Source of the DNA: Chiloscyllium plagiosum
Taxonomy: Eukaryota
DNA length: 64,000 bases
Direction of reading: 5' to 3'
Assembly: GCF_004010195.1 (NCBI RefSeq)
Contig: NC_057755.1
Span: 9,465,306-9,529,305 of the forward strand
Position numbers and translations under genes: made by a program. Positions 3,747-59,961 of the stretch are shown piece by piece; the first letter of the stretch is position 1; every line of letters starts with the position of its first letter. The notes beneath the pieces are model-generated. The model searched no databases. It saw nothing but the letters and a program-made list of their open reading frames with translations, and was not told where the DNA came from.

Positions 3747-6700
3747 TTGAACTGATTTAGACAGATTTTATTAGATTTGAGGGTACAAAACATCCCAGCA
3801 GATTTAAAAACCAACGGGTTCGTGTCCTAGAACTTTAAATGACATGTAGGTGAGACAATTTGTTTAATTTGGATGACTTCGTGTAGATTAAATTAAAAGT
3901 GAGGTAAATCGCTCTTATACTTCAAAATTGTTTGTGGAGTTTGAAGATGACGATCAAATTTTCTATGAAAGTTCAGGAGGAAAGAAAACGACAAAATCTT
4001 GTAGAATTAACAAATAAGTTAGATTTGGGTTTAACCAAGGATAATGTAAAGCTGAAATTGTAAAGGAGTTTCTCAAAAATCTAGGTTGTCAGAGAAACAG
4101 GCAAATGCAGTAGAGATAGAAAGAGTTAAATTATCTTGAGGAAAATAGAGTTCAAAGATAAACAAAGAGAGAGAGAAAGAGGAAGATAGAGAGAGGAGAA
4201 AGAGAGAAAGGCAATAGAGAGGGGGACAGAGAAAGAAGAAAATAAAAGAGAGAGAAGGTTCTGAGCTGAGCAAAAAGAGAGAGAATCTGAACTAGAGAAG
4301 TTGCAACTTACTCAGCAAAGTCAAGTTAACAGAATGGGGATGAAAAGAGAAGTTAGTGACACATACAAATATTTCAAATCACTGCCACATTTTGATGAGA
4401 AGGCCTTGTTGAAGCCTTCTTTCTTTCATTTGAAAAATTGGCTAGCCAGATGTTGTGGTCTGAAGACTTATGGATAATGCTAATTCAGACTTTACTGACA
4501 GGCAGAGATAATGAGGTATTTGCTGAGCTGTCAGATGAGGGATGACGAGGCTGTTTAAGTGCTCATGAATTGGTACCAGAAACATGTAGGCAGGGGTTCC
4601 AAAACACAAAGAAGAAAATAGATCAGACTTATGTTGAGTTCGAAAGAATTAAAAGTAGTCATTTTGATAGATGGGTGCATGTGTTGAAAATAGGTAGGAC
4701 CATTGAAGCTTTCAGAAATATTAGTATGCCGGAGGAGTTCAAAAACACATTTCCATAGATTTTAAGAATTCACGTGGAGGAACAAAAAGTTCACAAAGTG
4801 AGAAGGGCAGCAGAATTAGCAGATGAGCACAGGCTGGTGCGTAAGACAAGCTTCCGGCCAGAGTTGCGTCCTGTGACGGGTAGAAGTTGGGAGATGAGGA
4901 GATCCTAGACAACCAAACTAAGAGTCGTAAGAATTTACCACAGCATAAAAAAAGAAGCCCAGGACGGTGGAAAGAAGGTGAAAGCCTCATATGTTTTCAC
5001 TGGAATAGAGTAGGATACAGAAAATTACAGTGCCGGTGATTTCATGAGGGCACTGGGAAAACGTGCTTCCACTTCCAGACTGTGGGACACGTGAAGATAC
5101 AGTACTGGTCTTTAAAGAAAGGCGCTGTTGCAAAAGATGTGGTAATAGAAGTGAAGTCAGTTGCATTAGTAAATGTCATAAATGTCCCCAAAGGAGAGCC
5201 AATGAGATGCAGGAGAATATGTCGCCGAAGCAGGGACTTGGTATGGACTTAGTACTTGATTTCTATAAAGAATTCGCCTCTGCAAGTAAAGTTTGCTCAG
5301 AAAGAACATGGGTAGACAGACAAGAAGTTACAATTTTGAGAGATGTATGCACTAAACTGTCGCTGATGGTTAGGGATGAGCGAATGTGCACTCTTTCTGA
5401 TTTTTTTTACCCCACAGTGTGGTAATTTGTAAGATAGATGGACAGAACTATAACATTCCCCGATGTAAGACCAGGTTGGAATTCCCAATCGACACTGGAG
5501 AATTTGCTGTGGGAATGATTGACACAAAGTGATCCAAAGTGGGAGTGGCACCACTTGTCGTGGAGAAGCCCGAGGGAGACCAATAAACTGAGGAGTTAAA
5601 AAGAAATATTCTGGTATTTTCCCAGACTGCGTAGTAACAAACTGACACTGTGATATATTACATCACGAAGCAAAAAGTAAAGGAAAAGATGAAAGAGTTG
5701 AGGTTCAGGTAGCGGATAACCTGTTTGATGTTATAGTGCAGGAAAAACCGGGACAGAGGGTCATACAGTAGTGTTTAGTCGTGAAAGGTGAATGGACCTG
5801 CGACAGCTAGACAAAACGAAAAAAGACATATGTGGATGCGTGCTTCAAAAATCAGGCACAGAATATTCCGAAGAGTTATTATCTGAAAGATACAATCCTA
5901 AGACGGAAAGAAGACCGTGGCAAGTTAGTGCAGAGGAGAAATGGGCCGAAGTGCACCAGATTGTGTAGCTGGTAGCAGATAGTCAGGAGGTGTTAATGGT
6001 AGCACATGAACTACCTGTCGGCGGTAACCTCGCGGTACGAAAGACTTAAGCTCAGGTACAAGGCCTGGAATGCACAAGGATGTGGTTAACCTTTGCCGTT
6101 TGTGACATACATGCCAAGTAGTAGGTAAGCCATAAGGATAAATAAAACCATCACATGATTTGCCAATTCCTGCATTTTAAGCACCTCTCACTGGTTAATA
6201 ATTGATTGTGTAGTTCCCTTCCCTAGAACTAAAAGTGAGAACTAATACTTGTTTACCTTAATGAAGGTGTTTACCAGATTTCCGGAGGCAATTCGAGCAA
6301 GTTGGACAAGCCAGTTACATCACCATTTCCATTTTGCGGTATGAAGACCAAAAAGGTGTTAGAGGAGATTGTAACTTCCTTCAGATGGTATGCGCTAACC
6401 AGAGACAGTCAGTCGAACCAAAGGTCAAATTTCACTGAAGGGTTGTTTAAAGAGGTTAAAGATTGCTGAGGTATTAGCGCTTTAAATCCAGTGCATATCA
6501 TCCTGAATCCCAAGGAGCTTTAGAAAGGTGGAATCAGACTATCAGGATTATCCGTGAGGTTGTGATGAATGTATCCTATTCGTATTGTTTTCCATTGGAG
6601 ATGCTCAAACGAGTCTACTCAGTTCACTCCCTACCAGTTAATGTTCGGTCAAGAAGTGAGAGGTCCTTTAAAATTTATGAAAGAAGAATTCACCGGATCA

Positions 6701-21149: not shown

Positions 21150-21216
21150 ATGCTTGAAACATTTGGAATTATCAATAAATTATTCCATGTGATTCTTGCT
21201 ATCATTAGCCTTCCTG
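21150..21216 (+). CDS. Coding exon 1 of a GPR139/GPR142-like class A GPCR (MLETFGIINKLFHVILAIISLP plus 1 nt)
   Basis: ATG at 21150 opens 22 codons, mostly the hydrophobic first half of TM1, ending in CCT G|GTAAGT, a canonical phase-1 donor at 21217. It joins exon 2 in frame to give ...IISLP-V-NLLAIMILSRG with the conserved TM1 Asn. Confidence 0.85.
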
Positions 21217-22101
21217 GTAAGTGATTTAAATTATTAAGGCTTTGTAAAAAATGATTAAGAAATGCTCTGTCACTTTAAGAAGGATGATGTTACATTCTGA
21301 TCTAGTGGTCACAATTGGACAGACACTCAAACATTGATGTCATTTATTAAGTCAGACATTTTGAATGTATTGATGGTTTAATCCTGACTCATTAGAGCCC
21401 TTATGGTGCAGTGGTAAGGCCCCCACTCTGAATCACAAGTTTCACTTGCAACGGGTATATGTCTGAGCAATTTGACTGATGTAATATTATTCAGTGGATC
21501 GTCACATAACATCAGTGGTCACGTGATACAGACCTCTTTAGGAGCCAGTGTCTGTTTCTGAAGTCTGACAGGAGTAGTCTGCTGTTCTGGATTGAATCAT
21601 GTACTCTGAGATAGGAATCGGTGTCAGATCCAAGAGACATGGAGAGACGTGTTTCTTACTGAGAACTGCTTCTGGGAGCTAGAATCCAGGGTAAGAGTAT
21701 TAATTCTGAGGGGAATATGCCACATGGCAAACCCAAACTGAGGAGGATTCTGGTGCTAGTCACTGGACATGAACAAGAAACGGTCTGCTTCTATTTCTCA
21801 GTTGAGTCTGATTTACGGTTCCAGTCCAATCTTACACAGTCCCTAAATCTCTCCAGGCTCTAACCTGTCATGGGACAAGAACCCCCGTGGACAGCTTGAA
21901 AATTGGGAGAGACCTCATTTGTGGAGGATTTGAGTGAATGTAGAATCTCAATTTTGGCTAGTTAAATACTATTCTGGAATGTGACAATCATAAAATGCAT
22001 TTAGTGGTATCTGTGAACCCATAAAATACGTGAAATTGAAACTTTATTTTATGCTAAAAAAACCTCATGTTTAAGTCATGTGCAGAGATTTATTCAATCT
22101 G

Positions 22102-23156
22102 TTTGTAAGTTTGCTCACTGGGCTGGAAGGTTTGTTTTCAAATGCTCCATCACCATACTGGGTAACATCATCAGTGAACCTCTGATGAAGTGCTGATGTT
22201 ATGTCCCGCTTTCTATTTATGTTTCTTGGTTTCTTAGGGTGAGTGGTAAAATTGCTGGTTCTTTTTCTTAGAGGATAGTAGATGGTGTCCAAATCGATGT
22301 GTTAATTGATGGCGTTCCAGTTAGAATGCCGTGCCTTCAGGAATTCTCGTGTGTCTCTTTTAAGCTTGTCCTCAGATTGATGTATTGTCCCAGTTAAAGT
22401 GGTGGCCTGCTTTACCTGTATGAAAACATACCAATGATAGTGGGTCATATCTTTTTTCTGGTTAGTTTCTGTTCCTTTCCTGGTGGCTAGTTTTCTGTCC
22501 ATTTGTCTGATGAAGGCTTTGTTACATTCCCTGCACAGTATATTGTAAGTGATATTCGTTTTGCAGGTTTTCCGGTTGTAAGTTTGCTCACTGAGCTGGA
22601 ACTGGAAGGATTCTGTTCAGACATTTTGACACCATTCTAGGTGACATCATCAGTGAGCCTCAGGTGAAACGCTGGTGGTAGAACCGCAAAGCCAATGACA
22701 TTTACAAAATATCATGCAGGGACTGTCACAAACACTACATCGAACAAACAGGCAGAAAGCTAGCCACCAGGATACATGAACCCCAAGTAGCCTCAAAAAA
22801 GACATGGCCTTTCGTACAGACGAGGAAGTATATCACTTTGACTGGGACAACACATCAATCCAAAGACAGGCTAAACAGAGACATGCATGGGAATTCCTAG
22901 AGGCATGACATTCTAACTGGAACTCTATCAATTAACACATTGATTTGGTCCTCATCTACCATCCTTTGGGATAAAAGAAGCAGAAATCACATCACTTACT
23001 AAAAAAAACAAGAAACATAACTAGAAAGCACTTCACCGGACCCTCACTGATGATGTTATCTCGTATGCTGATGAACTGAAAACATACCTTCCAGCTCAGC
23101 AATCAAACCTTCAACTACAACCTCAACCTGAACTACAAATCTTCTCAAAATTGCTT
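22102..23156. mobile_element. Composite Penelope-like (family 3, Poseidon-like) insertion in the GPCR intron
   Basis: Minus-strand GIY-YIG fragment plus terminal repeat (22102-22575), a second inverted terminal-repeat piece, then plus-strand IYKISCRDCHKHYIEQTGRKLATRIHE and terminal repeat. Perfect 14-bp TSD ATTTATTCAATCTG at 22088-22101 and 23157-23170. Confidence 0.8.
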
Positions 23157-23207
23157 ATTTATTCAATCTGCAATTTAACACTGTCTGTTCTCTTATTTCT
23201 CATGCAG

Positions 23208-24124
23208 TTAATTTACTTGCAATTATGATCTTATCCAGAGGAAAATGTGGCCTCTCAACGTGCACCAGTCATTACCTGGTGGCCATGGCGATAGCAGATC
23301 TATTTGTTATAATCACTGAGGTTATTCTGTGGCAGATTAAATATGACTATTTCCCCATATCTTTCCTGGAACTTACCCCTGTGTGTAGTGTTCACAATGT
23401 TCTGATACGAGCAGCAATGGACTGTTCTGTCTGGTTCACAGTCACCTTCTCCTTTGATCGATTCATTGCCATTTGTTTCCAGAAACTGAAAATGAAATAC
23501 TGCACCAAGAAAAATGCAGCTGTCATCCTCTCAATAACCTGCATTCAGATCTGTTTTAACAATGTCCCCTTCTACTTTATATATGAACCAATACAGGTCA
23601 TTGCTAATCTTTCATGGTTTTGCTATCCAAAGGAAACTTATTTTATTGAGCCTGGATGGGTTGGATTTAATTGGTTTGATAGGGTTTTAACACCCTTGCT
23701 TCCGTATGCTTTAATTCTATTACTTAACGTTCTGACAGTGAGACACATTTTAGTGACCAGTCGAGCCCGCCAGGGACTGAAGGGACAGAGAAAAGGAGAA
23801 ATTCCCAGTGACCCAGAGATGAAGAGCAGAAGAAAGTCTGTGATTTTACTTTTGACCATATCTGGCATCTTCATCATTCTGTGGTCAGTGCATGTTACAG
23901 AATTCTTATATTATAATATTCGAGGAACGTACCTGAGAAATTATAATAACTCAGAAATTATATTAGCAATGGCAGGCCTTTCACTGGTGAATTTAAATTG
24001 CTGCACCAACACATTTGTTTATGTGGCAACTCAATCAAAGTTCAGAGAGCAAGTCAGGGGGATGATGAAATATCCTGTCACATTGATTATCCAATTAATA
24101 AATAAACAAAAGAACTGCGTGTAG
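23208..24124 (+). CDS. Coding exon 2 of an intact GPR139-like orphan class A GPCR; spliced product 327 aa
   Basis: Polypyrimidine tract plus CAG acceptor ends at 23207, in frame with the 299-aa ORF 23225-24124. Seven hydrophobic segments. TM2 MAIADL, Cys at the top of TM3 (PVCS), SFDRF (DRY variant), ECL2 Cys (WFCY), TM5 LLPY, TM6 FIILW, TM7 NTFVY (NPxxY variant). No stops or frameshifts. Orthology to GPR139 itself is not established. Confidence 0.9.
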
Positions 24125-24737
24125 CATAGAGGCAAGTACCAGCATTTACTGTCAAGAATGAAAACAAAAACAAATTAACCATAGCTGTTGGTGAATGCTG
24201 GAACCCAAGCTATGATCCTCGTTGAATCATTACCTTCCAGTGCAAAAAAATACATGTTTTGCTTTCAGTTTGTTAATGAATTCTCTGTCCATGCCAGTAT
24301 AATACACAAATTACACTGGCTTTGATTTTGCAAAACTAATTTTATTTATGGGACATTACCAGAAAGTTTCTGAAAATCCAAATACACTGCATCCACTTCA
24401 TGTTCCTTATCTATTCTGAGTTTATTTTCAAGGAATTCCACTATGTACGTAAAACATGATTTCCCTTTCATCAGTCTATGCGGACTTTGTGAAATCCCGT
24501 ATCCACATTCTTCAATATGAACACTTGCATTTTCCGAATGACTGGGATCAAGCCAATCTGTCTAATCTTCTGTAACCGACAGGAAAAGCACATCACTCGA
24601 ATAAAGATCATCTTTGCAACTTAATCGACGACCCAGAAAATAGCACAATCTTACTGCTCTAAAGAAATATTGCTCCAAGCTCGCCGACATGTGTAAAGTT
24701 TAATGAACGGACAGATTGCAACAAAAACGATTGCAAC

Positions 24738-26485
24738 AAATTGTGTGTGGAGTCAGAGGAGATAGGGGAAGCACTCACAGCTATATTTTAGACAGTATTC
24801 ATTCTAGAAAACGACAATGCTGTTGAGAAGAACACTGAAATACAGGGTACTAGACTAGGTGTGATTGAGGTTCACAAGGAAGAGGTATTAGAAATCCTGC
24901 CGAGTGTGACAATAGATAAGTTCCCTGGGCTTTATGGAATTTATCTAAGGATCCTCTGGGAAGCCGGGGTGGTGGTGGGGGGTGAGGTGGGGGGGGGGGG
25001 GGCGAGATTACCAGGCCTTTGGCATTGATCTTTAAATCGTCAATGTCTACAGGAATAGTACCAGAAGACTGGAGGAAAGCAAATGTGGTTTCCCTGTTCA
25101 AGAAGGGGAGTAGAGACAACCCGGGTATTTATGGACCAGTGAGCCTTACTTCAGTTGTTGGTTAAGTGTTGGAAAAGGTTATAAGCGTTCTGTATTATAA
25201 TCAACTAGAAAATAATAATTTGATTAGGGATAGTCAGCACGGTTTTGTGAAGGTTAGGCCGTGCCTCACAAACCTTATTGAGTTCGTTGAGAAGGTGACC
25301 AAACAGGTAGATGAGAGTAAACTGGTTGATGTGGTACATAAGGATTTCAACAAGGCGATCCATAAGGTTCACCAGAGTAGGCTATTGTACAGAATGCGGA
25401 AGAATGGGATAGTGGGAGATATAGCAGTTTGGAGCAGTAATTGGCTTGCTGAAAGAAGACAGAGGGTGGTGGTTGATGGGAAATGTTCATACTGGATGCC
25501 AGTTACCAGTGGTGCACCAAAAAGGGTCAGTGTTGGGTCCACTGCTGTTCGTCATTTTAATAAACGACCTGGATGAGGGCGTAAAAGAGTGGGTTAGTAA
25601 ATTTGCAGACAATACTCAGATCAGTGGAGTTTTGGATCGTGACGAAGGATGTTGCAGGTTTCAGAGAAACATGGATAAGCTGAAGAGCTCGGCTGAGAGA
25701 TGGCAAATGGAGTTTAATTCCGAACAAGTGAGAGGTGATTCACTTTGGTCTGAGTAACCAGAATGCAAAGCACGGGGCTAATGGTAAGATTCTTGGTACT
25801 GCAGATGAGCAGAGAGATTTCGGTGTCCAGGTACAGTGATCCTTAAAAGTTGCCACCCAGGTTGACAGGGCTGTTGATAACGCATACAGTATTTTAGCTT
25901 TCATTAATAGAGGGATCGAGTTCCCGAACCATGAGGTTATGCTACAAGCTGTGGTGCGGCCGCACTTGGAGTATTGTGTACAGTTCTGGTCACCGCATTA
26001 TAAGAAGAACATGGACATTTTGGAAAGGGTGCAGAGGATATTTACGAGGATGTTGCCTGGTATGGAAGGAAGGTCCTACGAGGAAAGGCTGAGGGACTTG
26101 AGGGTGTATTCATAAGAGAGAAGAAGCTTGAGACGTGACTTAATAGAGACATATAAGATAATCAGAGGGTTAGATAGGATGGACAGGGAGAGGCTTTTTT
26201 CCAAATATGGTGACGGCGAGCACGAGGAGGCTTTAAATTGAGGGGTAACAGATATAGCACAGATTTCAGCGGTAGATTCTTTACACAGTGAGTTGGAAGG
26301 GTATGGAATGCTTTGCCTGCAACTGTAGTAGATTCGCCAACTTTAAATACATTTAAGTCGTCATTGGACAGGCATATGGATGTACATGGAATAGTGCAGG
26401 TTAGATGGGCTTCAGTTTGCTATGACAGGCTGGCGCAACATCGAGGGCCGAAGGGCCTGTGCTGACCTGTAATGTTCTATATTCT
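24738..26485 (+). mobile_element. CR1 LINE, 5'-truncated
   Basis: DSQHGFVKVRPCLTNLIEF, GSVLGPLLFVILINDLD, FADNT; tail CATCGAGGGCCGAAGGGCCTGT..TTCTATATTCTAT. Confidence 0.88.
24966..25002 (+). repeat. G-rich low-complexity tract within a CR1
   Basis: GGGGTGGTGGTGGGGGGTGAGGT followed by a long G run. The sister CR1 copy (~55520-55530) has only a short GGGAGGAG here. Confidence 0.8.
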
Positions 26486-26984
26486 ATAAAAGCATATAAT
26501 AAAAAAAACACCATTTTCCTCACTATTGTGGGTACAGAAAATAAAGACAAATAAAGACACAAACACATGCATTCTTGTTCAAAACTCCCAACCCACACCC
26601 ACATGCACAGATAGGTTTGTGCGGCGAATTTGTACGTGCATAATTACACTATATGATTCTCAAAAACTGCATGAATCCATGTAAGATTCTCTAAATTATT
26701 TTATTTTAGAAATGGAATCAGTCTGAACATTAGAGCACAGACATGCTCACACCATCAGCTCACACCATCAATTCATTATCTGATCAGACATGACACCTGT
26801 TATTAAAGTGCACTTGAGAATGTAAGTTCAAACAAATTCTTGGTTTTGCATGTAGAAGAAATGATTGTAAAATGATCATTCTAAAAGATACTAGAAGTAA
26901 GAAAAATTGCAATTTTTTCCATTACGTAATTGCATTTGCATCACAGTGTAAGCGTTTACCATGAATTCCGTGACTTATGATCTT

Positions 26985-27520
26985 TGCGGCCAAACTTGGA
27001 ATATTGTATACAATTCCGGCCCTCATACTTCAGGAAGGATGTGGAAGCATTGGAAAAGCTGCAGAGGAGATTTACCAGGATGATGCCTGGTCTGGAGTGA
27101 AGGTCTTATGAGGAAAGGCTGAAAGACTTGGATCTGTTCTCAATGGAAAGAAGAAGGCTAAGAGGAGATTTCAGAGAGACACACAAGTTCATCAGAGAAT
27201 TAGATAGGGTAGACAGTAAAAGTATTTTTCCTAGGATGATGACGTCAACTTGTAGGTGGGGGCATAACTACAAATTGAGGGGTGATAGATTTAAGATAGA
27301 TGTCAGAAGCAGGTTCTTTACTCAGAGAGTGGTAAGGGCGTGGAATGCCCTACCTGGAAACGTAGACAACTCAGTCATATTCGGGAGATTTAAACAATCC
27401 TTAGATAAGCACATGGATGATTTTGGGATAGTGTAGGGTGATGAGCTGAGAATAATGCACAGGTCGGCGCAACATCGTGGGCCGAATGGCCTGTTCTGCG
27501 CTGTATCGTTCTCTGTTTTA
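26985..27520 (+). mobile_element. CR1 3' fragment inserted in the upstream pseudo-LTR of the family 2 PLE
   Basis: ERRRLRGD..RFFTQRVVRAWNALP plus CR1 tail. The flanks rejoin to match the uninterrupted repeat at ~30990-31030. Confidence 0.85.
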
Positions 27521-30382
27521 TATTCTCTTACACAACCACCTGATGAAGGAGCAGCGCTACGAAATGTAATGCTTCCAATTAAACCTGTTTGTCTATAAAC
27601 TGATGTTTTTTGATCTTTAACTTTGTACACCCTAATCAAAACCTGGCACCTCCAAATCATGACGACCATCGACACCATGAACTGCGAGTTTAAAGTGGAG
27701 TGGATCTGCAAAGAGATCACACATCTGGACACAGACATCAATTGTGTTTGCATAAATGCATGAATCAGGATTGATCACAAATGGATGACGAATCACAAAC
27801 TAACTCAACTCGACCTCCAACTCAGAATATGTGGAGAAATTTTGCCACTGCATCTCTCGCAAGCCCCTCAAACATCTTGTGCACGAACTGTACAGCAGAT
27901 GCCACACACTTGAAATTAAGTTGGAGTCCACACTGTCTTTTTACACTCAGAATACTGCAGTACAATAAATAGGACATGACAAAATAGTTATGGCGATGAA
28001 ACTACATTGCCTATATGTCCATCAATAACAAGAAACTGGAGAAATCTGGCATCACAACCAGCAGTAGCAAACCCGCCCTGGCACCGCAGTGGAAACTGTT
28101 ATCACCATGGGGAAGTCAATCGGCAACTTGTCAGACTACAGCTTTCAACCAGAAGAGATTGGAGTTCTTCACAGGGTTTTCAATTTCTGCCCCATCACCA
28201 AAATGGATCCCATGGGTCTTGCAGCAGGCACAGAGGCATTCATCAGATGAATGAGACTCTGGGAATTGTTTCAGGATGGCAGCAGTGAGCCAAATGAGCC
28301 CACTGATGAACCAGAACAACCATCGGGATCGTTAGAGGGGTGAAGAAAGAAGGAGTCAAATTGGACCCACCAGAAGGCCGCAGTCCTGGGCTTACTACAG
28401 ATGTTCAAATTGTCAGGAATACATAATTGCTAGATTCATCAGTCACACCCACAAGGGGGAGCAAAATGTCACTCAATCATAATGCCCCTTCATCCATGCT
28501 CTCAAACCAAACACAACATTGTCATCAAAGTAGCAGGTAAAGGCTGAGCCATCTTCATTCAGAATCGGACAGACAACTGCAAGCAATTGTACCGACAACT
28601 GAACATCTGGGAACACTACAGGCAAGTATCGGCTGAACTGACCAAAATGCCCTCTAGTGATCTAAACATAGTGATTAGTAATTTGGATTGAGTCCTTCAG
28701 AGTTCTCCTAATCCCACGTATTGCATCATGAAGGCGACTTCTAATACCTTCTCAAGTTAAACAAAGCCAACAGTCCAGGTCATCTAATCTCATGAGGCAA
28801 TGGGACCCTGTGTATGAACCTCTCTGCCGATGTCATAAAGTCATACAGATGTACAGCATGGAAACAGACACTTCGGTGCAACCCGTCCATGCCGACCAGA
28901 TATCCCAATCCAAACCACTCCTACCTGCCAGCATCTTGAAGCCCATTGTACAGGAAAAGCCCCAACTTCTGTCGCAACACTCCATATTTCTTCCAGAAAC
29001 GCTGAACTTCCGAAGCAGCTGAAGCTGAAACATTCATCATCACAATGGATGTTTTAGCATTCCACATCAGCATCCCCCACATGATGGCATCGTGGCAACA
29101 GTCTCAGTACTCAACAACAACAAGTGTTAATCTCCGACCTCCATCTTTCAACTCATCAGTTTTTTACTCGACCACAACGTTTTCACCTTTAACAATCAGT
29201 TCTTCATCCAAACACACGGAACAGCTATGGAGACCAAATTTGCACCCCAATATGCCAAGAGTTTCATTCACAGGTTCGAACACGACTTCTCCTCCACACA
29301 GAAACCCCATCCAACACTATGTACTAGGTATATTAACGGCATTTCTTCCTCTGTACTAATGGCAAGGACTTACTGAAACAACTACACGTAGATACCAACA
29401 AATTTCATTCCACCATCAAATTCAGCATGGACTACTCTTTAGTATCTGTCGCATTCTTGGACACATGCATCTCCATCAAAGATGGCCACCTCAGCCCCGC
29501 ACTCTACTGCAATTTCACGGATAACCTCACGATGCTACACTTCTCCACCCGAATCATATTAAAACAGCCATTCACTATGGACAAGCCCGAAGAATGCACA
29601 GGATCCACTCAGATGAGGAGGAATGTGACGGGCACTTGCAAATGCTCAAGGATCCCCACATAAGAACAAGGTACAATGCTGAATTCATCTACCACCAGTT
29701 CTGACCGGCCACAGAGAGAAAGTGTAATGACCTCCTCTGGAGACATGAGCAGAAACCGATGGGGTATGCTTCATTATCCAGTATTTCCCCTTAGTCGAAA
29801 AACTTCTTCATGTTCTTCACAGTATGCACCACATTATCAGTGAGGATGAGCACCTCACCAAGACCTTCGCTTCACCGCCACCTCTCGCCTTTAACAATCA
29901 CCAACCCTCAAACAGATCACTGTTCACAGCAATCTGCCCGGCTTTCAGGACAACACCGCACAACCCTGTACTGGCAGACTCAGCAATTCGTGTCAGTGTC
30001 ATCATGGATACCTCCATTACACTTTGGGACCCAATTAACCATTCCCATGGCAGGTACTCTTGTGACTCAGTCAACGTTGTCTATCTCATGCAATGCAGGC
30101 AAGGATGACCTGAGGCAAAGTACATTGGCAAGACCGAGCAGAGGCTATGGCAATGGACACCGTACAACAATCAACAGACAGGAGTGTTCCATCCAAGTCG
30201 GTGTATACTTCAGTGGTCTGGGACAATCGACCTTGGACCTTTGAGTGACCATCCTCCCAAACAGACTTCAGGACACGTAATGATGCAAAGTGGCTGAGCA
30301 ATGTCTGATATCCAATTTCCGTACCCACGGGCATGACCTCAACTATGACTTTTGTTCATGTCACCAAACAAGTGATCCCACT

Positions 30383-30470
30383 GCACACACATACACGCAA
30401 GCACACACACACACGCAAACACACACACACACACGCAAACACACACACACACAAACTCACACACACACCT
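30383..30470. repeat. (CA)n-rich microsatellite
   Basis: Imperfect CA/CACG runs, visible directly. Confidence 0.9.
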
Positions 30471-31641
30471 ACAGACTTATCCAGACCCTTTCACACAAAA
30501 GCTCTCTCTCATACGTTCACACATACATGCCCAAACGCACACTCATGCATGCACGCTCTCACAGAATCGTACCCCTTTGCACTCACACTCACACAAATAC
30601 TCATACACACACGCTTAACAGACACTCATGCCCACCCAAAATATGGATGAATATGTGCTTGCAGACTTACATTTTACTTTGCTTAAAAACTGCAAAATTT
30701 CAAGTAAGATTCTCTAAATCCTTGTTTCAGATTAGAATTAGACTGAACATTTGATGCGGACAGCCTCATACAGCGCACCTCACAGCTTCAATGCATTATC
30801 GGAGCTGACATGGCACCTATATTTAAGGTTCAATTGAGAATGTAACTTTAAAAGAAATGTTCTATGATTTACGTTAAAAAAAAGTGATACCACTATGGTC
30901 ATTCTAAAAGATGAATGACCTTCCAAAGAATCCATGTGTTTTTCAATATGTAATTTCAGTTGCATCACACTGTAAATGTTTTCTGTCAATTCTGTGTCTT
31001 CAGATCTTACACTCCCCAACCAGCTGATGAAGGAGCAGTGCTCAAAATACTTGTGCCTCCAAATAAGCCTGTTGTATTATAATCTGATATTGTGTGATTT
31101 TTAACTTTATATACCCCAGTACAACACCCGAATGAGAGATCGTTGTTCAGGATAATGAGGGAGCAGATTTAAAACAGAGGTGTGGGCAAAACATTTCTTT
31201 CAAAGGGTTTTGACACATTGGAATAACTTGCCTGAGTGTGTAGTGGATGGTGAGGCAACAAGAAAATTGATAGACCTGTAATGAATAAAGCTTTGAATGT
31301 TTATAGAGCGATAACAGGAAAGTGCTGTTGATGTCGGGATGTGATCAGTGATAATCGTATTGCGTGGCATGATACACTCAAGGGGCTGCATCGCCTACTC
31401 CTGCCATTAGTTATTTTATACCAGATTCTACTCAATCCAGTGGTTCCGCATTATTCTGAATTTTGTCTATTAATGAGCATAATATCTCAGCCTGATATTT
31501 TACACATTCTGTACATCCTGTGTTTGCTCTTGTATCCTGTGCTGTTTACAAACAACCGCGGATGTGTGGCGATTTATTTATTAATCACCCAAAGTATTCT
31601 GCCAGCGTCAGTGATACATCCACACAGTTCTATCCTCTTTG

Positions 31642-32416
31642 TCTTATGAAGTTGAAAGTGTGTTCTGTACATTTATATGAGTGTGATTGCTGGTTTGCTT
31701 ACAAGCCCCTGTTATATGAATAATTAACAGCCACAAAGTGTATTGGAAAATTGAAAATATGTGACATTTGGCTACGAAATCTGCTGTTTTAACAACAACT
31801 CATGTCTAAACAATCAGTTTAAATTATGACACAGAATGCAAAAACTCAATAGAGTTTATATTTAATCTTTCGCTAACATTGAACCAATGCAATTATCCTT
31901 TGTTGAGGGCATAAAAATGCAGACATTTTGAAAGTCAAGCAGAATAACTACCATCGACAGAGTAACTGCCATCGAGAGAGTAACTGTCATCTTGACAGAT
32001 TGAAATTCTCTCTATCAAATTTAACTTGTCATATAAAGGGAAATTTGCAGTATAGGACAGACGATGACCCAGGGAGAACCTAGCCACGAGAAGAGAGACA
32101 CCGACGCCAAAAGCCAGCGTTTGGTTTTGAAATTAAGTTGCTGTAATTTCAATGAGGTTTTTTTTTTATTGGAACAGTATATTGTTCTGGAGTTGAATGC
32201 AGATAAAATCAGTTTTGACAAAAGGGCGCTTCGAGTTGTGAAAACCCATTGTTTAAAGTTCGCTATTAGAGTTAGGGATTAAATCGATATTATTTCATTT
32301 AAATATGATATTTGTGAGTTATCTGTCAGTGATATTTTAACAGATTGCGAGGCGAGGTGATTTTCTTCCAGGTATTTGTTTTAATTCACAGTAAGTTTCA
32401 AAACCTTGTTGTGACA
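31642..32416 (+). repeat. Probable solo LTR distantly related to the element A LTR
   Basis: Colinear similarity to 3019-3723: start TCTTATGAAG vs TGTTATGAAG, CAATCAGTT..AA.TAT, TGGTTTTGA, end GTGACA vs ATAACA. No PBS or TSD seen. Confidence 0.5.
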
Positions 32417-33994
32417 GTCAGCATTCCATGACAATCGATTGTGAAAATGCATACGGCTTTAGAATTTTTTTCTTCAGTTTCTTCTCTGTCTGTTTTAATT
32501 CAACAATTCCACATGCTCCATAATTGCGGCGAAGGTGAGAGACAGTAATATAAGTTTCTGGACAGGGATATAGTGTTGAATACAGCATTGAAACATGTTT
32601 TTAACCGATCTGTGTGAAGCCATCTTCCATGGGTTGAAATATCGTCGTTATGTACTACAAACAGATGATATATCTGTTCTAGGTTCTAATGCAAAGGGAC
32701 TAGGGGAGATATGTGTAAAAATCTGTAATGTGCATTAATATGATGATTTGGAAAGTTAACATCGAACTTGATTTTCCTTGGACGTAGACTGAAGGAAATA
32801 TTCTGAAGATAATGCTTTACCTATCTCCCATTAGGCCTAAACGTAAGCATTTTCTAAAGCTCTGGGGAGGCCAGCTGAAAACTAAACTGGAATAGCTATC
32901 AGAAAAATAGTGCAAGTGAGTATTTGGAGCATTTAAGATGAAAAGGAATGGGAGGTTTATAAATGATTAGCACGAGCCTTAATGTAAATTGTTCGAATGA
33001 TGTGGAGGTTTGATACAAATAGAAGATGCCAATTATTTTTCCCAACATCAAGACCATGAAGTATAAAATGTTTAAAATAAGGTGGTCAAAAAGTGATTGC
33101 CAAAAATAATGTGGAATTTAGGTCCACTTTGTAGAAAAGTGCAAAGGTTAGACCGGAAAACCAGTGCCATGATGCGGAGAAGATTCATTCCACAGAGGCT
33201 TCTTATGACAATAGTAAATGTTGTGATTCAGCCAGCTTGGCGTTAGTATCAATTCCCAGCGTGTATATTCCAAATAACGTAACAGATAAATCCTGTGTCA
33301 GAATCTTTACTGTTTGATAGTATCATCTTATTTCAATCATTTTTGGTATTTTTGATTTGGAGACGTGACCTGTGAATCGAGAGCTGAGGTTTGAGCAGAA
33401 CACCATCTCCTGAAAAAAGAAAGGAGAAGAGCAGTTACATGTTGTTGACGTCCGATATGAAAGTTAATTGTAGATTATTTTTGGTGGATGCTGCTCCATA
33501 GACCCATCAAGTTGAGAAAGGGCTTATCCTCAGCAGAGGTTGAATGTTATCTGGGACCTCAATAGAAAGCAGTCAACGGGAAAGGGAGAGGCCAGAGTTT
33601 GAACTGGGTTTTCAGAAGAATGATTGTGCCTATAAAGGCTGTAAGAAAACAAAAATGATTTGTATTCTCCTCGATTCTCCTCTCATCGTCAACTGTTTTA
33701 AAATTCAAAGAATAGAATCTCTGTTAGTGAAGCAAAGAGAATACTTTGGAACCTGCAGTAAGCTATATTTATCTATCAGTATCATCAGAAACCAAACAAG
33801 ATGCAATCTCGAGTGACAGTGATGTTACAGATCATAGAAACTTCTTATGTAAGCTTGCCCATTTCTTTCCTTTTCACTTTTTCCTGAATATGTCTGCATG
33901 TCTTTTGGATGGAGAGAAGGAGCTATAATTAGAGGATCACGTTCAAAACTTACGCAGTGATAAGATTACTTTGTCATTTAACATTAGCATCCAA

Positions 33995-35378
33995 GAATGT
34001 GGTGCTGAAAAAGCATAGCCACTCAGTCAGCTTATGAGGACCGTACACCCCAACCTCAAATTCTTCTGTTACCTTGTGAACATCTCCGTCCCCTCCCTGA
34101 ACCTCTGCCTCTCCTTCTCGGGTGACTGACTGACCACAGATCTCTATGACAATCCCACCAACTCCCAGCCGTACTAGGCTACATCTCGTCCCACCATACC
34201 TTCTGTAAAAATGACATCCCTTATTCCCAATTCCTCTGTTTCCACCATATCTGTTCCAGGTTGACGTTCCAGGTCTAACTTAGAAAATCCCAGATGGCCT
34301 CCTTCCTCCAAGATCAGAATTTCCCTTCCCACATAGATGACGATCACCTCCAGCACATCTCTTCCATTTCCCACAACTCCGCCCTGGAATTCCCCACTTG
34401 CCAATGCAACAAAGACAGAACCACCTCCGGTCCTCAATTTTCACGTCACCAACTTTCATACATAGTATTATAATCTGCCACTTCCGCCAACTACAAATTG
34501 ACACCACCACCAGATATAACCTCCCCTCCCCACTCCTATCAGTGATCTCAAGAGACCATTCACTCTGCGACTCCTTTGCGAGATCCACACCTCACCAGCC
34601 CACACCTGACTTTCAACACCTTCCCCGCCACTGCAGAGAGTGCACACCTGCGCCCACACTACTCCAATCATTTCCATCCTAAGTTCAAAAGGATCTTTCC
34701 ACGTCCGACAGAAAATTAACTGCATCTCCACCAATGTCATCTACCATATCTGTTGAGCCCGATGTGGCCTCCACTACTTCGGGGAGACAAAACGCCTACA
34801 AGCAGATCATTCTGGAGTATATCTCTGTGGTATCCGCTGCAACCAACCTCACTGCCCTATGGCTGAACACTTTAACTCCCCTTCCCACTCCACCAATGAC
34901 CTGCAGATCCTGGGCCGCCTCCATCACCAACCACTTGCCAATGGTTACCGAGAGGAAGAACGCGTCAGATTCCATTTTGGGACCCTGCAACCACAAGGGA
35001 CTAATGCAGATTTCACCAGTTCCGTCATTTCCCATTCCCCCACATTATTCCAGGCTCAATCCTCCAACTCGGCACCACTCTCCTGACCTGTCCATGACCT
35101 TTCCCATTTATCCGCTCCACTGTCTCCTCCAACCTGTCACAATTTCTCCCACCTTCATCTTCCAATCGCATTCTCAGCTACTTCCCCCCCTCCCCAACTC
35201 CACCCCGTCCCAGTTATCCCTTTGCCCAACCGGCCCGCAAACTTCATTCCTGATGAAGGGCTTGTGGCCAAAGCATCATTCTCCTGTTCGTCGGATACTG
35301 TCTGACCTGCTGTGTTTTTCCAGCACCACACTCTCGACTCTGATCTCCAGCATCTGCAGTCCTCACTTTCACCTCCCA
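33995..35378 (+). mobile_element. Penelope-like (family 1) 3' half with a short inverted terminal-repeat piece at the 5' end
   Basis: Colinear with ~42930-44230; MAEHFNSPSHS..EEERVRFHFGTLQP; terminal CCTGATGAAGGGCTTGTGGCC..CAGCATCTGCAGTC. Confidence 0.8.
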
Positions 35379-35808
35379 TGTGGCTCGTGATTCGAAATGT
35401 CTGTTTAAAAAGTAATTGAGTCAATTTTGAAGATAATCAATCATTTAAATCTTACTGTATTGTAAGTACAGTGATACAGAAGATGCTTTGCTTTGGCTGT
35501 CAGTCATTTTGTCAAAACAAATGTGACATATTCTAAGTACAACGTCCTTCATCTACTTTGAACTGTGTAATACTTGACTGTCTTTAATAGACAATGTGCG
35601 AAACAGCAAATTTGCAGTGTCTCTGTACCAGTGCGTTGTTGACCCAAAATGTGCTTTGTGACTCATGTATATTTAATGAAAACTGTTATACAGAGGTTTG
35701 AGCCGTTCATCGTAAGATGTGTCAACTGTATATTTTTTTCTGAGTATTCCTTTTCAGTATTTCTTACTTATTCTGAGTATAAAATTTATTTTTATTTTGC
35801 CTCATTAG

Positions 35809-36764
35809 CAAACCTGGTGGCAACAATAACTTTGTCGAAGTGAAACTGCGGTCTTTTTGATTGTTCCTCTGCCTTACATGGTGGCCATGGCAACTGCAGG
35901 TCTTCAGATCACGACCTTCAACGTAACTGTGCAACGCATTTTCAGTTTTGAATTTGCATATTCCTTCTTCTCATGCACTGGTGTTTACGATGTCGTTAAC
36001 TACACGAGCTCTGTCAACCTGTAATAGCAGTGTGGTTCACTGTCACTTTTACGCTTGACAGATGTACAGGTATATGTCCTGAGAGGCTAAAAACAAAGTA
36101 CTGCAGAGCGAGGACAGTAGCTGCAGTTATAACGATAACCACTGCCCTAGTTTGCCTGGAGAACATAACGTTTTGGTTTGCATAAGAAACAAAAGTGGTA
36201 ATTGATCATTTACAGCTGGGTTGACGCAGCAATTTGCAATTCTTCACTTCGCCGCAAGGTGTAACATTCTCCTGGTTACATCGTATTTTACTTCTTTCCC
36301 TTCCATTTTCTTTGATGTTCTTATGCAATTGCTTGACAGTCAGATGTATTGCCGTAACCAATAGAGCACGCAGGTCAGTCCGGGATCACAAATGTCGGCG
36401 TGAAATAGACCCAGAGATGGAAAGTCGAAGGGTGTCCATAATTTTACTCTTCAAAGTTTCAGGCAGTTTTATCGTTCTTTGGCGAACAGCATCACTGAGC
36501 TTTTTGTCTCCGAGGATAAGGAACAACACACTCCATCAAGCTGATTATGTAACTCCTGCTGACATTGCCATTGAAACTGGCCAAATGCTCGTGTATTTGA
36601 GTTCATGCACAAACGTGTTCTTTTATGCAGCCATGCATAGTAAATTCAGCCAAGAGGTAAAGGATATATTAACATTTCCTTGGTCATTTATTCTGACAAT
36701 GGCTAATCAGAAGAAAACATGGAAAAATTTCTCTGCGTCAGAAATTCCTAAGCGGATAAAATAA
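35809..36764 (+). pseudogene. GPR139-like GPCR pseudogene (exon 2 remnant)
   Basis: TAG acceptor ends at 35808, same phase as the intact gene. Reads ANLVATITLSK*NCGL..YMVAMATA..VWFTVTFTLDRC..KTKYC..DPEMESRRVSIILL..SCTNVFFYAAMHSKF. Stops at 35841, 36022-36027, 36183 and 36222; frameshifts near 35875 and 36028. Confidence 0.88.
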
Positions 36765-37109
36765 ACCTCTTTCATTTAACAATTTCCTATTTTTCTCCAT
36801 GATTGCAAGTAGGCAGTTAAAATAAAGAATGGTGAAACCTTTTCAGTGTTGAACTATTTTTCATGAATGGCAATAAATAGTTTATTATTTCAAGTTAAAT
36901 AGAACAAGTGAATACAGTGAATATACTTGTTCTTCTCTAACAGACATGCACCTCAACATTTGATAATTAGCAAACATATATATCTTTCATATTGGTGACA
37001 AACTGAATTTCTCATTGCTGATATCAACGACCATTTTAAACATGATTTCACTTTTAATCCACTTTTTCAGTTATTCATTTCAACTTCTTCTCAAATCTCT
37101 GTAACTGGT

Positions 37110-52954: not shown

Positions 52955-54193
52955 TCATACCAATCTGAAGCCCATCTAACCTACACTATTCCATGTACGT
53001 CCATATGCTTGTCGAATGACGACTTAAATGCTCTTAAAGTTGGCGAATCTACGACCATTGCAAGCAATGCATTCCATACCCTTATTACTCTCTGAGTAAA
53101 GTAACTACCTCTGACATCTGCCCTTTATCTATCACCCCTCAATTTAAAGCTATGCCCCCTCGGGCTTGCCGTCACCATACTTGGAAAAAGGCGCTCCCTG
53201 TCCACCCTATCTAACCATCTGATTATCCTATATGTCCATATTAAGTCATCTAACAGCCTTCTTCTCTCGAATGAAAACAGCCTCAAGTCCCTCAGCCTTT
53301 CCTCGTAAGACCTTCCACCATACCAGGCAACATCCTACTAAATCTCCTCTGCACCCTTTCCAAGGCGTCCACATCCTTCTTATAATGCGGTGACCAGAAC
53401 TGTACACAATACCCCAAGTGCAGACGCACCAGAGTTTTGTACAGCTGTAGCATAACCTCATGGTTCCAGAACTCGATCCCTCTATTAATAAAAGCTAAAA
53501 CACTGTATGTCTTCTTCACAACCCTGTCAACCTGGGTGGCAACTTTCAAAGATCTGTGTACATAGACACTGAGATCTCTCTGCTCATCTGCACTACCAAG
53601 AATATTACCATCAGCCCAGTACTTTGCATTCTGGTTATTATGACCAAAATCCATCACCTCATACTTGTCCGCATTAAAATCCATTTGCCACCTCTCAGCC
53701 CAGCTCTGCAGCTTATCTATGTATCTCTGTAACCTACAGCATCCTTCGACACCATCCACAACTCCACCGACCTTAGTGGCGTCTGAAAATTTAATAACCC
53801 ACCCTTCTACGCCCCCGTCCAGGTCATTTATAAGAATGACGAACAGCAGTGGACCCAACACCGACCCTTGCGGTACACCACGAGTAACTGTACTCCAGGA
53901 TGAACATTTCCCATCAACCACCACCCTCTGTCTTCTTTCAGCAAGCCAATTACTATTCCAAACTGCTATTTCTCCCACAATCCCATTCCTCCGCATTTTG
54001 TACAGTAGCCTACTGTGGGGAACCTTATCGAACGCATTGATGAAATCCATATACACCACATCAACTGGTTTACTCTCATCTACCTGCTTGGTTAACTTCT
54101 CAAAAATCTCAATAACGTTTGTGAGGCCCGACAGAACCTGCACAAAACCGTGCTGACTATCCCAAAACAAATTATTCTTTTCTAGATGATTAT

Positions 54194-55330
54194 CAACTTC
54201 AGCAAGGCATTTGAGAAGGTTCCCCATGGTCGGCTCGTTCAGAAGGTCAGGAAGAATGGGATACAGGGAAATTTAGCTGTCTCGATACAGAATTGGCCGA
54301 TCAACAGAAGACAGCGGGTGGTACTGGAAGGAAAGTATTCTGCCTCGAAGTCAGTGGTGAGTGGTGTTCCACAGGGCTGTTTTTGGGCCTCTTCTCTTCG
54401 TAATTTTTATTAATGACTTGGATGAGGAGATTTAAGGATGGGTTAGCAAGTTTGCAGACGACACAAAGGTTGGAGGTGTCATTGACAGTATAGAGGATTG
54501 TTGTAGGCTGCAGCGTGACATTGACAGGATGCAGAGATGGGCGGAGAGGTGGCTGACGGAGTTCAACCTGGATAAATGCGAAGTGAGGCATTTTGGAAGG
54601 TCGAACTCGAAAGTTGAGTACAGTCTTAAAGACCGGAGTTTTGGCAGTGTGGAGGAACAGCGGGACCTTGCTGAGCAGGTGCATAGATCCTTTAAAATTA
54701 CCACCCAAGTCGACAGGGTTGTTAAAAATCATATGGTGTTTTGGCTTTCATTAACAGGGAGATTGAGTTTAAGAGCCATGAGATCTTGTTGCAGCTCTAT
54801 AAAACTTTGGTGAGAAAGCACTTGGAATCCTGTGTCCAGTTCTGGTCTCCCCATTATAGGAAAGATGTGGATGCTTTGGAGACGGTTTACCAGGATGCTG
54901 CCGAGAATGGAGAGAGGTTGATTGAGCTCGGACATTTTTCATTGGAAAAAAGAAGGAAGAGAGGCGACTTAATTGAGGTGTATAAGATTATGAGAGGCAT
55001 AGATAGAGTTGATAGCCAGCAGCTTTTTCCCAGGGCAGAAATTGTTAACACGAGGCGTCACAGTTTTACGCTGTTTGGCGGAAAGTATAGAGGGGATGTC
55101 AGAGGCGGGTTCTTTACCCAGAGAGTTGTGAGAGCATGGAATGCGTTGCCAGCAGAAGTTGTGGAAGCAAGGTCATTGGGGATATTTAAGAGACAGCTGG
55201 GCATGCATATGGTCACAGACATTTGGGAGATCCTACATTAGTTTTACCTTACATGAGGGTCAATGGTCGGCACAACTTCGTGGTCTGAAGGGCTTGTTCT
55301 GTGTTGTATTGTTCAATGTTCTATGTTCTA
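54194..55330 (+). mobile_element. CR1 LINE 3' part of a different subfamily, inserted antisense into the minus-strand CR1
   Basis: FSKAFEKVPHGRL..GVPQG, FADDTK, ESCVQFWSP, with its own tail GTTCTATGTTCTA. The host CR1 sequence rejoins across it. Confidence 0.85.
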
Positions 55331-57665: not shown

Positions 57666-59249
57666 GTGTATGCTCATGAGATTGATCAAAACAATACCAT
57701 GCATGTGAGTTTATCTGTGAAAAGCCATCACCCAATTTCATTCCTAATCGACTTCGTCAATTCCTTGGTGGCTGGGTGAGTACTGAAGTGTATGATGCCT
57801 CCCTTGGAGCTTGTGCGCACTTGTCAGAGTCTCTCACATCGAAAAGAACGCATCCCTCTTCAGAAAAAAAAATGGACCGTCCGATAATTCTGCTGATAAA
57901 GGAGATTTATTATCCAATTCTTGCAACCATTGGTTTTCCTGGTGAGCGTTTTTAAACTTTCTCTTGTCAAGTTGCGTCAATTGCTTCACGATTCCAACCT
58001 ATTCGTGAAAGACTGTAACGTTTCTGACATCTCAACACTGCACTGGCTGAGGTTTCCAATAATGGCTTGTCAAGCTGTCTATCCACAATTCCATTCTTTC
58101 ACTGAAGAGATACATTTGCTGATATTCGCATATTATTGAAATTTGCAAACTGTTAATTGGGACAGAAAAAAGTAGGTGTAGACAGGATGGTTGGTCAAGT
58201 GAGGCAATCTTGATCGACTGGCTGTGATATTTGAATAGGTGTTGAAGATTTTAAGCACAGATGACGTGAAATTGCTTATCCCAAAAGTTTGGGAAGCTAT
58301 TGAATTCAATGCCTCAGAGTGTTGGTAGAAGGCGGAGCTTTGCCTAAACGTGAGGAGGAAATAGGCCGATTTATAAATCGGAGAGTTTGTTGGAAAATTA
58401 ATTTGAGGCTGAGGTGAGATCAGTTATGATCGTATTGCAATGCGTAGCAGTTTCTCGGCACTAAATGGTTTCCTCCCGCTCCCAGGTCTTCTTTGCTTCG
58501 AAAGATTATCTCTTGCCTGTTTGGATGACTTTCTCAACAACGATCCCATCAGAATGTTTCACAAGATTTTTCTCATGCTGGTCTGAAAAGAAAACTATAT
58601 TTTTGCCCTTAGCTGTACAACCACAAGTGCAACAAAATTAACATGCTGAGAAATTGAACCACCCTGATCATGCAAGTTTCATCCTTAATGTTGTTTCAAT
58701 GCACGAAAATAACAATGTTAAAAAAAACATTATATGCAATAAATTTCAAACATTTTTGTTTTCAATTTAAATATGTTGTTCCCACTGTTCCATCTCACCA
58801 GCATTCTCTACTGCAACAGTCAGTCACAGTACACATATACATTGTGTGTATGTGTGCGTTTATTGAAGCATCCTCCTTTCTTTTTTGTTTTTGTTCACTT
58901 CTGCTTTGTAATTTGGGTCAACATCTCTTGACCTTCCCTTCTCGAACCGCTGCGTTCTATGTGCTATAGGACGACTAACATTGCCCTCACGGAGGAAATG
59001 CAGGATTTTTGCCAACATTGTTCAGGCTTTGGAGAGTCAGTAGATCGGTTACTTTCTACAGCAATTCTAGCCTCTGTTTTTCGCTTGACGCCACTGTATT
59101 TATACAACGAGTACATTGTGATTGAGACAAAACAATACCAAATATTTTGTGCCTGATTTGATCAAATAGTTTACATTGTCACACGATTTCAATTATACAA
59201 TGTGGGCTAGAAGTGATTTTGAATGTAATTTAGTCCAACAATCCAAACA

Positions 59250-59509: not shown

Positions 59510-59961
59510 AAATAAACTTCCATTTTCACCTCTGTACAATCCCCTGATGTTTTTAAATTTCCATTCTTCAGAGATTGCTAGGGTCAGACGGTTTGATGAT
59601 AAGAGAAGGAGTTCTTTTTTTATCACGCATTCCAATTATAATTCATGCTCTCTTATTGTGAGTTAATGATTCTACTCAGACTCACACATAGCTGTCCCCA
59701 AATCAAAGTGATTATTTGGCTTCGAACAACGTCAAAAAAAGTTATTTTCTTTAAGTAATTTATACCACCCTCTTACTTTATTTCTGTTTCTTGGAAATAT
59801 CTTTTGCCTTTGCCTTAAAATTCATCGCACTCTCCATTGGATATTTTCTCCCTGTTGCAATGATGCAAAATTTCAATATTGCTTAACATCGTGGTGTAAA
59901 GTAGCAAACTTCAGGCGAGCTCAAACAATGCTTTCAACGCAGGTGACATTAGCTATCCTGA

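Follow-up and report, generated by a model that had tools for sequence, protein, structure and literature searches.

Vertebrate chemoreceptors of the OR, TAAR, V1R, V2R, and T2R families follow a common pattern of compact gene clusters, pseudogenes, and a variable ligand pocket. The srw chemoreceptors of nematodes descend from rhodopsin receptors of the peptide type (PMC3963977). Cartilaginous fishes are described as poor in G-protein-coupled receptors (GPCRs) (PMC8455134), with 20 to 62 olfactory receptor genes in all (PMC10869828), and are credited with a keen sense of smell (PMC10116579). The window considered here, a stretch of 64,000 nucleotides from the bamboo shark Chiloscyllium plagiosum (contig NC_057755.1, positions 9,465,306 to 9,529,305, forward strand), contains an intact receptor gene, gene 1, for which membership in a family expanded in chondrichthyans is practically certain. 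In the explanation favored here, gene 1 is one member of a large class A multigene family that undergoes birth-and-death evolution in clusters.

Sequence and predicted structure agree that gene 1 is a class A (rhodopsin-like) GPCR. The only Pfam match is 7tm_1 (E value of 1.3e-18; 67.9 bits against a curated cutoff of 30.5), and no OR, TAAR, V1R, V2R, or T2R receptor occurs among the best 60 profile matches of the family. The switch residues are kept: N24 (N1.50), D53 (D2.50), the pair C82 and C161 (C3.25 and extracellular loop 2 [ECL2]), the DRF triplet at 106 to 108, P188, W248, and N290 to Y294 (NxxxY), with P6.50 and P7.50 missing. An AlphaFold2 model built without the exon 1 part (mean predicted local distance difference test [pLDDT] score of 87.8; predicted TM-score [pTM] of 0.83) contains a confident bundle of the seven-helix type and an ECL2 hairpin. 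Foldseek comparison of this model with class A structures gives TM-scores of 0.62 to 0.74; peptide and chemokine receptors make up most of the matches, no single receptor stands out, and GPR139 takes rank 6.

The size of the family was assessed by searching with the exon 2 protein of gene 1 against clusters formed at 90% identity. At an E value of ≤0.001, 1631 of 2823 candidate clusters match, a number that is not a family count, as names are known for the best 120 of the 1631 only. All 120 are sharks: the horn shark contributes 79 clusters, the basking shark 9, the sawshark 8, the smoothhound 7, the sevengill shark 6, the bamboo shark, zebra shark, and cloudy catshark 3 each, and the whale shark 2. 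Among these listed matches, the closest protein to gene 1 comes from the whale shark (80% identity), and a single horn shark scaffold of 74.47 Mb holds 31 of the 79 horn shark clusters. Since alleles and haplotype duplicates are expected to collapse into one cluster at 90%, the 79 clusters should be a minimum for a single subfamily of the horn shark. An exhaustive search of representatives at 50% identity yields 109 matches at an E value of ≤1e-30. For 30 of the 150 representatives listed, the species was looked up: all 21 divergent family members come from chondrichthyans, with two skates, a stingray, and the chimaera Callorhinchus among them; the other 9 comprise 3 relatives from bony vertebrates and 6 that are annelid or lack a species name. 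The family thus undergoes birth-and-death evolution within clusters, as seen from the clustered paralogues (31 on one horn shark scaffold) and from three loci in the window, one of them a pseudogene. The original prediction of a shark-expanded, clustered family of this kind is thereby borne out, and the finding of one or two copies per genome, which it had named as fatal, did not occur. On a zebra shark scaffold of 13.97 Mb, members of the gene 1 subfamily, of the pseudogene subfamily, and of another subfamily lie together, forming mixed clusters as in the window.

The receptor loci of the window all lie on the forward strand and comprise the following parts:

21150..21216, + strand: gene 1 exon 1 (67 nt), with the ATG, a short N terminus, and the first half of transmembrane helix 1 (TM1), ending at a phase-1 GT donor
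21217..23207, + strand: gene 1 intron of 1991 bp, made up in part of high-copy repeat, with repeat-level read depth from 21634
23208..24124, + strand: gene 1 exon 2, intact, encoding the remainder of TM1 to TM7, helix 8, and the stop, behind an AG acceptor ending at 23207
35809..36764, + strand: gene 2 exon 2, a pseudogene of another subfamily than gene 1, with 3 internal stops and 2 frameshifts
57872..57941, + strand: gene 3 exon 1, with the start codon, 23 codons plus one base, and a phase-1 GT donor (profile score of 35.9)

Spliced in phase 1, the two exons of gene 1 form an open frame of 327 aa. Exon 1 contributes 22 residues up to the Pro of TM1, the commonest length among the relatives tested (34 of 56). 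The pseudogene follows at a distance of 11.7 kb, in agreement with the original prediction of two loci about 12 kb apart on the same strand, one of them dead: stops occur at 35841, 36183, and 36222, and frameshifts occur near 35875 and 36022. Two further elements of that prediction were borne out. The AG acceptor of the pseudogene, ending at 35808, is equivalent in phase to that of gene 1 and likewise lies directly before the Asn of TM1, and the predicted strong divergence amounts to 40% identity over 233 aa (E value of 4e-49). The list of shared signature motifs survives in part: YxVAMAxA, VWFTVTF, KxKYC, and DPEMxSRRxS are present in both genes, and LSxGxCGL is broken in gene 2, where the Gly codon is a stop. 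The proteins closest to the pseudogene are from the whale shark and the zebra shark.

A position profile built from the first exons of the 56 relatives and scanned over both strands of the window gives just two positive sites, exon 1 of gene 1 (22.0) and that of gene 3, with the next best site at −8.7. Because the first exon of gene 3 was found besides gene 1 and the pseudogene, the window is a piece of a receptor cluster with at least three loci. In sequence, this exon is nearer to deep subfamilies represented by a ray and the whale shark than to gene 1. The second exon of gene 3 was not found in the remaining 6 kb of the window and lies beyond position 64000 or is lost, and neither the profile nor tblastn or blastn found a first exon of gene 2 in the window. 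Weak matches at 4561 to 4647 and 5614 to 5900 were considered as receptor remnants and rejected, as the sequence did not read so. In many RefSeq models of the family, the N terminus is extended by a long segment that resembles repeat DNA of the window, so that in these models the prediction of the short exon 1 is probably often wrong.

In one read run, the summed contig depth is about 5986 on the coding core of gene 1 (23335 to 23901) versus 15 to 18 on the pseudogene (35809 to 36942), values that do not represent a copy number. The contig depth hints at many similar copies in the genome behind that run and is not counted as support. Close paralogues are suggested by two contigs of the same run, the first with 90% identity to the start of exon 2 and the second lacking 1 base at 23230. 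Retroelement remnants with long open frames lie on the reverse strand at 53292 to 54272 and 59921 to 61321 and match the reverse transcriptase domain RVT_1 of Pfam (E value of 1.3e-17) and, weakly, GIY-YIG; the latter match is presumably typical of Penelope-like elements. Self-repeats cover 37% of the window. The original prediction had taken DNA dense in transposable elements as a telling sign, a point that did not hold up: transposons are spread through the genomes of elasmobranchs without bias according to a preprint abstract, so that this cover is not distinguishing, and transposon density is rejected as evidence of function.

The variability of the family is concentrated in the ligand pocket. 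The pocket was defined by 25 generic class A positions, omitting TM1 and TM4, and its positions and the helix numbering follow the class A scheme. The site list was fixed after the table of per-site entropies had been viewed, and sites of low entropy were retained. Across the 79 horn shark paralogues, D2.50, C3.25, D3.49, P5.50, N7.49, and Y7.53 are each conserved to 100%, and R3.50 and W6.48 to 99%. Mean entropy reaches 1.62 bits at the 25 pocket sites, compared to 0.52 bits at 118 other helix sites (P = 2.5e-8) and 0.83 bits at the 45 nonpocket sites of the extracellular half (P = 1.5e-4 versus the pocket); the intracellular half shows 0.34 bits. The eight most variable helix sites are all pocket sites, and 13 core pocket sites yield 77 distinct signatures in the 79 proteins. 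This pattern is repeated in 41 proteins from species other than the horn shark, and the signal drops when the site list is shifted by 1 or 2 residues. At matched divergence, 31 horn shark paralogues from the same scaffold show 80% overall identity, with 51% in the pocket and 87% at other helix sites, compared to 81%, 98%, and 85%, respectively, for a control of 20 amphibian orthologues (sturgeon row dropped). As far as their sequences tell, the copies share one fold, one set of switches, and one cytoplasmic face and differ in the residues that line the predicted pocket. A ligand-diversified repertoire is therefore the very likely meaning of the pattern.

Phylogenetic analyses place the family in a wider group of orphans. 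In a careful tree of 47 rows, all family sequences, which come from sharks, skates, a ray, and a chimaera, group in one clade (support of 95/91) with the chimaera nested inside, and the same clade is recovered in a quick tree of 109 rows (SH-like approximate likelihood ratio test [SH-aLRT] of 92). In the 47-row tree, the partner of gene 1 is a protein from the whale shark (100/100); that of the pseudogene comes from the zebra shark (100/99), in another subfamily to which a ray and a skate also belong. The tree puts the two loci in different old subfamilies, so that recent tandem duplication is rejected. Subfamilies in this tree are common to sharks, skates, and the chimaera.

The nearest vertebrate relatives of the family are two clades, here called A and B, which are ∼27% identical to gene 1 and in which each named species has about one cluster. 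Members of clade A are known from sharks, coelacanth, sturgeon, teleosts, amphibians, turtles, and squamates, and none of the named rows among the best 120 of 145 matches is a mammal or bird. Clade B was found in amphibians and sturgeon (21 of 25 matches, with the other 4 being members of the shark family); the 47-row tree makes it, moderately supported (92/76), the sister group of the shark family, with which it has the motif DPEMxxRRxS in common. The pocket of clade A is fixed and polar (R3.28, D3.29, Y3.33, R6.51, Q6.55, and D7.36). In clade B, F3.33, W6.48, K6.51, and N7.39 are kept nearly without exception, as in GPR139, which suggests that a GPR139-like ancestral pocket later diversified in the shark family. 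The entropy contrast seen in the horn shark paralogues is absent from clade A (0.71 bits in the pocket versus 0.84 elsewhere), and clade B shows the opposite contrast (0.11 versus 0.48). Clade B would be a candidate stand-in as regards the ancestral ligand of the shark family. Besides its GPR139-like pocket, this clade shows S1.50 and N2.50 instead of the usual Asn and Asp. Two clade A records are named as TMEM183A isoforms, which hints at a neighboring gene. With E values of 1.8e-18, 2.6e-13, and 1.3e-12 to human GPR139, the two clades were rejected as true GPR139. Rinne et al. (2019; PMC6504862) named GPR139-related orphans of coelacanth and fish GPR210A and GPR210B; clades A and B may tentatively correspond to these, and the excerpts of that article do not mention sharks.

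Judged by similarity, the family is a distant offshoot of the GPR139/GPR142 branch. A profile of the family matches GPR139 best among solved structures (E value of 9.3e-28; next, 4.7e-21), and because of this match, most members carry the RefSeq name “probable GPR139”; some others are named as capa, vasopressin V2, or C5a receptor-like. Profile match and name would both be expected if gene 1 were the shark orthologue of GPR139 or GPR142, a receptor for L-Trp and L-Phe. Compared directly, human GPR139 matches gene 1 with an E value of only 5.6e-8 and ranks behind angiotensin AT2, while the two orphan clades are closer by score. At least 120 shark clusters are 62 to 80% identical to gene 1 or nearly so, among them the 79 paralogue clusters of the horn shark. 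Four residues, F109, H187, W241, and N271, are essential for the activation of GPR139 (PMC5430874). Gene 1 keeps one of them: W241 corresponds to W248, and F109, H187, and N271 are replaced by R90, D180, and L280. In addition, R244 of GPR139 aligns to H251. The positions of the replaced residues are variable across the shark family. Copy number and residues together refute the orthologue reading, which is extremely improbable; similarity excludes 1:1 orthology, and gene 1 almost surely does not represent the GPR139 orthologue, as had been predicted. Of the further proposal of a repertoire for amino acids or peptides, the repertoire stands, and an amino acid sense carried over from GPR139 is unsupported, with three of the four essential residues replaced at positions that vary in the family.

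The expansion is apparently undescribed: no account was found in the open-access literature searched, most subscription papers lying outside it, and the proteins themselves are already in RefSeq under their automatic name. GPR139 is not mentioned in the main-text excerpts of a whale shark paper (PMC8455134) and a catshark sensory paper (PMC11979771), and those of PMC10620051 and PMC13100897 contain no GPCR terms. The passages of the Squalomix preprint on tandem clusters name SUCNR1 and V2R and not this family, and neither “cartilaginous” nor “paralog” occurs in the portion of a GPR139 review covered (PMC12208981). The term “receptor 139” gave no match in 12 of the 24 supplement files of the whale shark paper, in one small nurse shark spleen file (PMC10529500), or in eight catshark cartilage files (PMC13188829), all of them searched without a naming control. 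A top-50 list for catshark olfactory tissue includes no GPCR of any family in the part seen, with V2Rs absent too, and is hence uninformative (PMC11979771). In ∼2% of the reads of a single-cell run of unspecified tissue, depth is 0.15 and 0.08 on bins of exon 2, with no listed joint of 21216 to 23208.

For the family as a whole, the preferred reading is that the ligand probably differs from copy to copy and that all copies would signal by a common G-protein route via the shared cytoplasmic face. The repertoire would serve to detect external chemicals, with small peptides or polar metabolites as the predicted cues; the putative site is a sensory epithelium, for instance, the nose, taste buds, or chemosensory cells of the skin. 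Chemosensation may be the most likely use of the repertoire, with chances that are about even. Somewhat below this stands the broader proposition that an independent chemoreceptor family arose before the shark/chimaera split from a GPR139-type peptide-receptor ancestor, outnumbers all known olfactory receptors of cartilaginous fishes, and was overlooked because surveys sought only OR, TAAR, V1R, V2R, and taste families. Several points weigh against the chemosensory reading. Immune receptor families yield the same variable-pocket signature. The pocket list follows generic class A numbering and omits TM1 and TM4, and pocket variability is a protein-level proxy rather than a ratio of nonsynonymous to synonymous substitution rates (dN/dS). 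Neither tree includes true GPR139 or GPR142 sequences, none of which turned up when 390 collected proteins were scanned for motifs, and the named matches are confined to the best 120. Finally, all catshark olfactory neurons seen were TRPC2/Go positive and V2R probes revealed robust expression (PMC10116579), because of which the catshark nose may need no further receptor family.

Other uses of the repertoire predict much of the same evidence. If the copies acted as immune or barrier sensors on leukocytes, mast-like cells, or epithelia and detected peptides from microbes or damage, as mammalian FPR and MRGPR do, clustered birth and death and a variable pocket would be equally expected. The modeled ECL2 hairpin with its C3.25-ECL2 cysteine pair, which we take to be a peptide receptor feature, and the preponderance of peptide and chemokine receptors among the fold matches are consistent with this possibility. 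A weak point against it comes from a single-cell atlas of bamboo shark immune organs (PMC11372145), whose cluster-marker tables use RefSeq descriptions: the searched part contains no “receptor 139” row, compared to 46 “coupled receptor” rows from several species as a control, and sparse multicopy genes rarely pass marker thresholds. Overall, an immune function is possible and rather unlikely. Reproductive or kin recognition, in which receptors for sperm, oviduct, pheromone, or self peptides are diversified by sexual selection, would likewise account for the hypervariable pocket and lineage-specific bursts, and a link between GPR139 and the sex-peptide/MIP and FMRFamide receptors of invertebrates has been described (PMC12208981); nothing specific points to the gonads, and this reading is improbable. 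Hardly more probable is a largely neutral amplification of a receptor for an endogenous ligand, whose redundant copies would drift in the pocket. The repeat-rich locus with its pseudogene fits such a process, and tandem duplication in batoids reportedly scales with genome size (10.1101/2025.06.08.657570). Against it, pocket sites exceed other helix sites in variability while the switches are near invariant, and copies have been kept very long, because subfamilies are common to sharks, skates, and a chimaera.

Under the preferred chemosensory reading, the counts gain weight: one subfamily alone comprises at least 79 distinct proteins in the horn shark, compared to the 20 to 62 olfactory receptor genes credited to cartilaginous fishes. 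If sensory, the repertoire would be a new vertebrate chemoreceptor family and a parallel to nematode srw, and it would change the paradox of keen smell with few known receptors by accounting for it. If immune, it would give the oldest lineage of jawed animals a large and so far unrecognized set of innate receptors. In either case, the automatic name “probable GPR139” conceals the family in databases.

Compared with the vertebrate OR, TAAR, V1R, V2R, and T2R families, the shark family shows the same compact clustered genes, pseudogenes, and variable pocket on a fixed scaffold; it differs in belonging to an unrelated lineage, with 7tm_1 as the only Pfam match of gene 1. Clusters bearing Srw are among the feature look-alikes of the family (scores of 0.94 to 0.96), but the nematode expansion is independent, and gene 1 has no Srw Pfam match at an E value of 0.001. 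With GPR139 and GPR142, class A orphans that respond to L-Trp, L-Phe, and certain peptides, the family shares W6.48 and an NxxxY motif without P7.50, along with the structural match described above. In contrast to these single conserved genes, the shark family is multicopy and only distantly similar; it carries C3.25 at a position that is Asp in GPR139, has no P6.50, and differs at the activation residues and at R244 in gene 1. Clades A and B are the closest in kind, as GPR139-like orphans of which clade B is the sister group with a common motif; they are of low copy with a fixed pocket, whereas the shark family is multicopy with a variable one.

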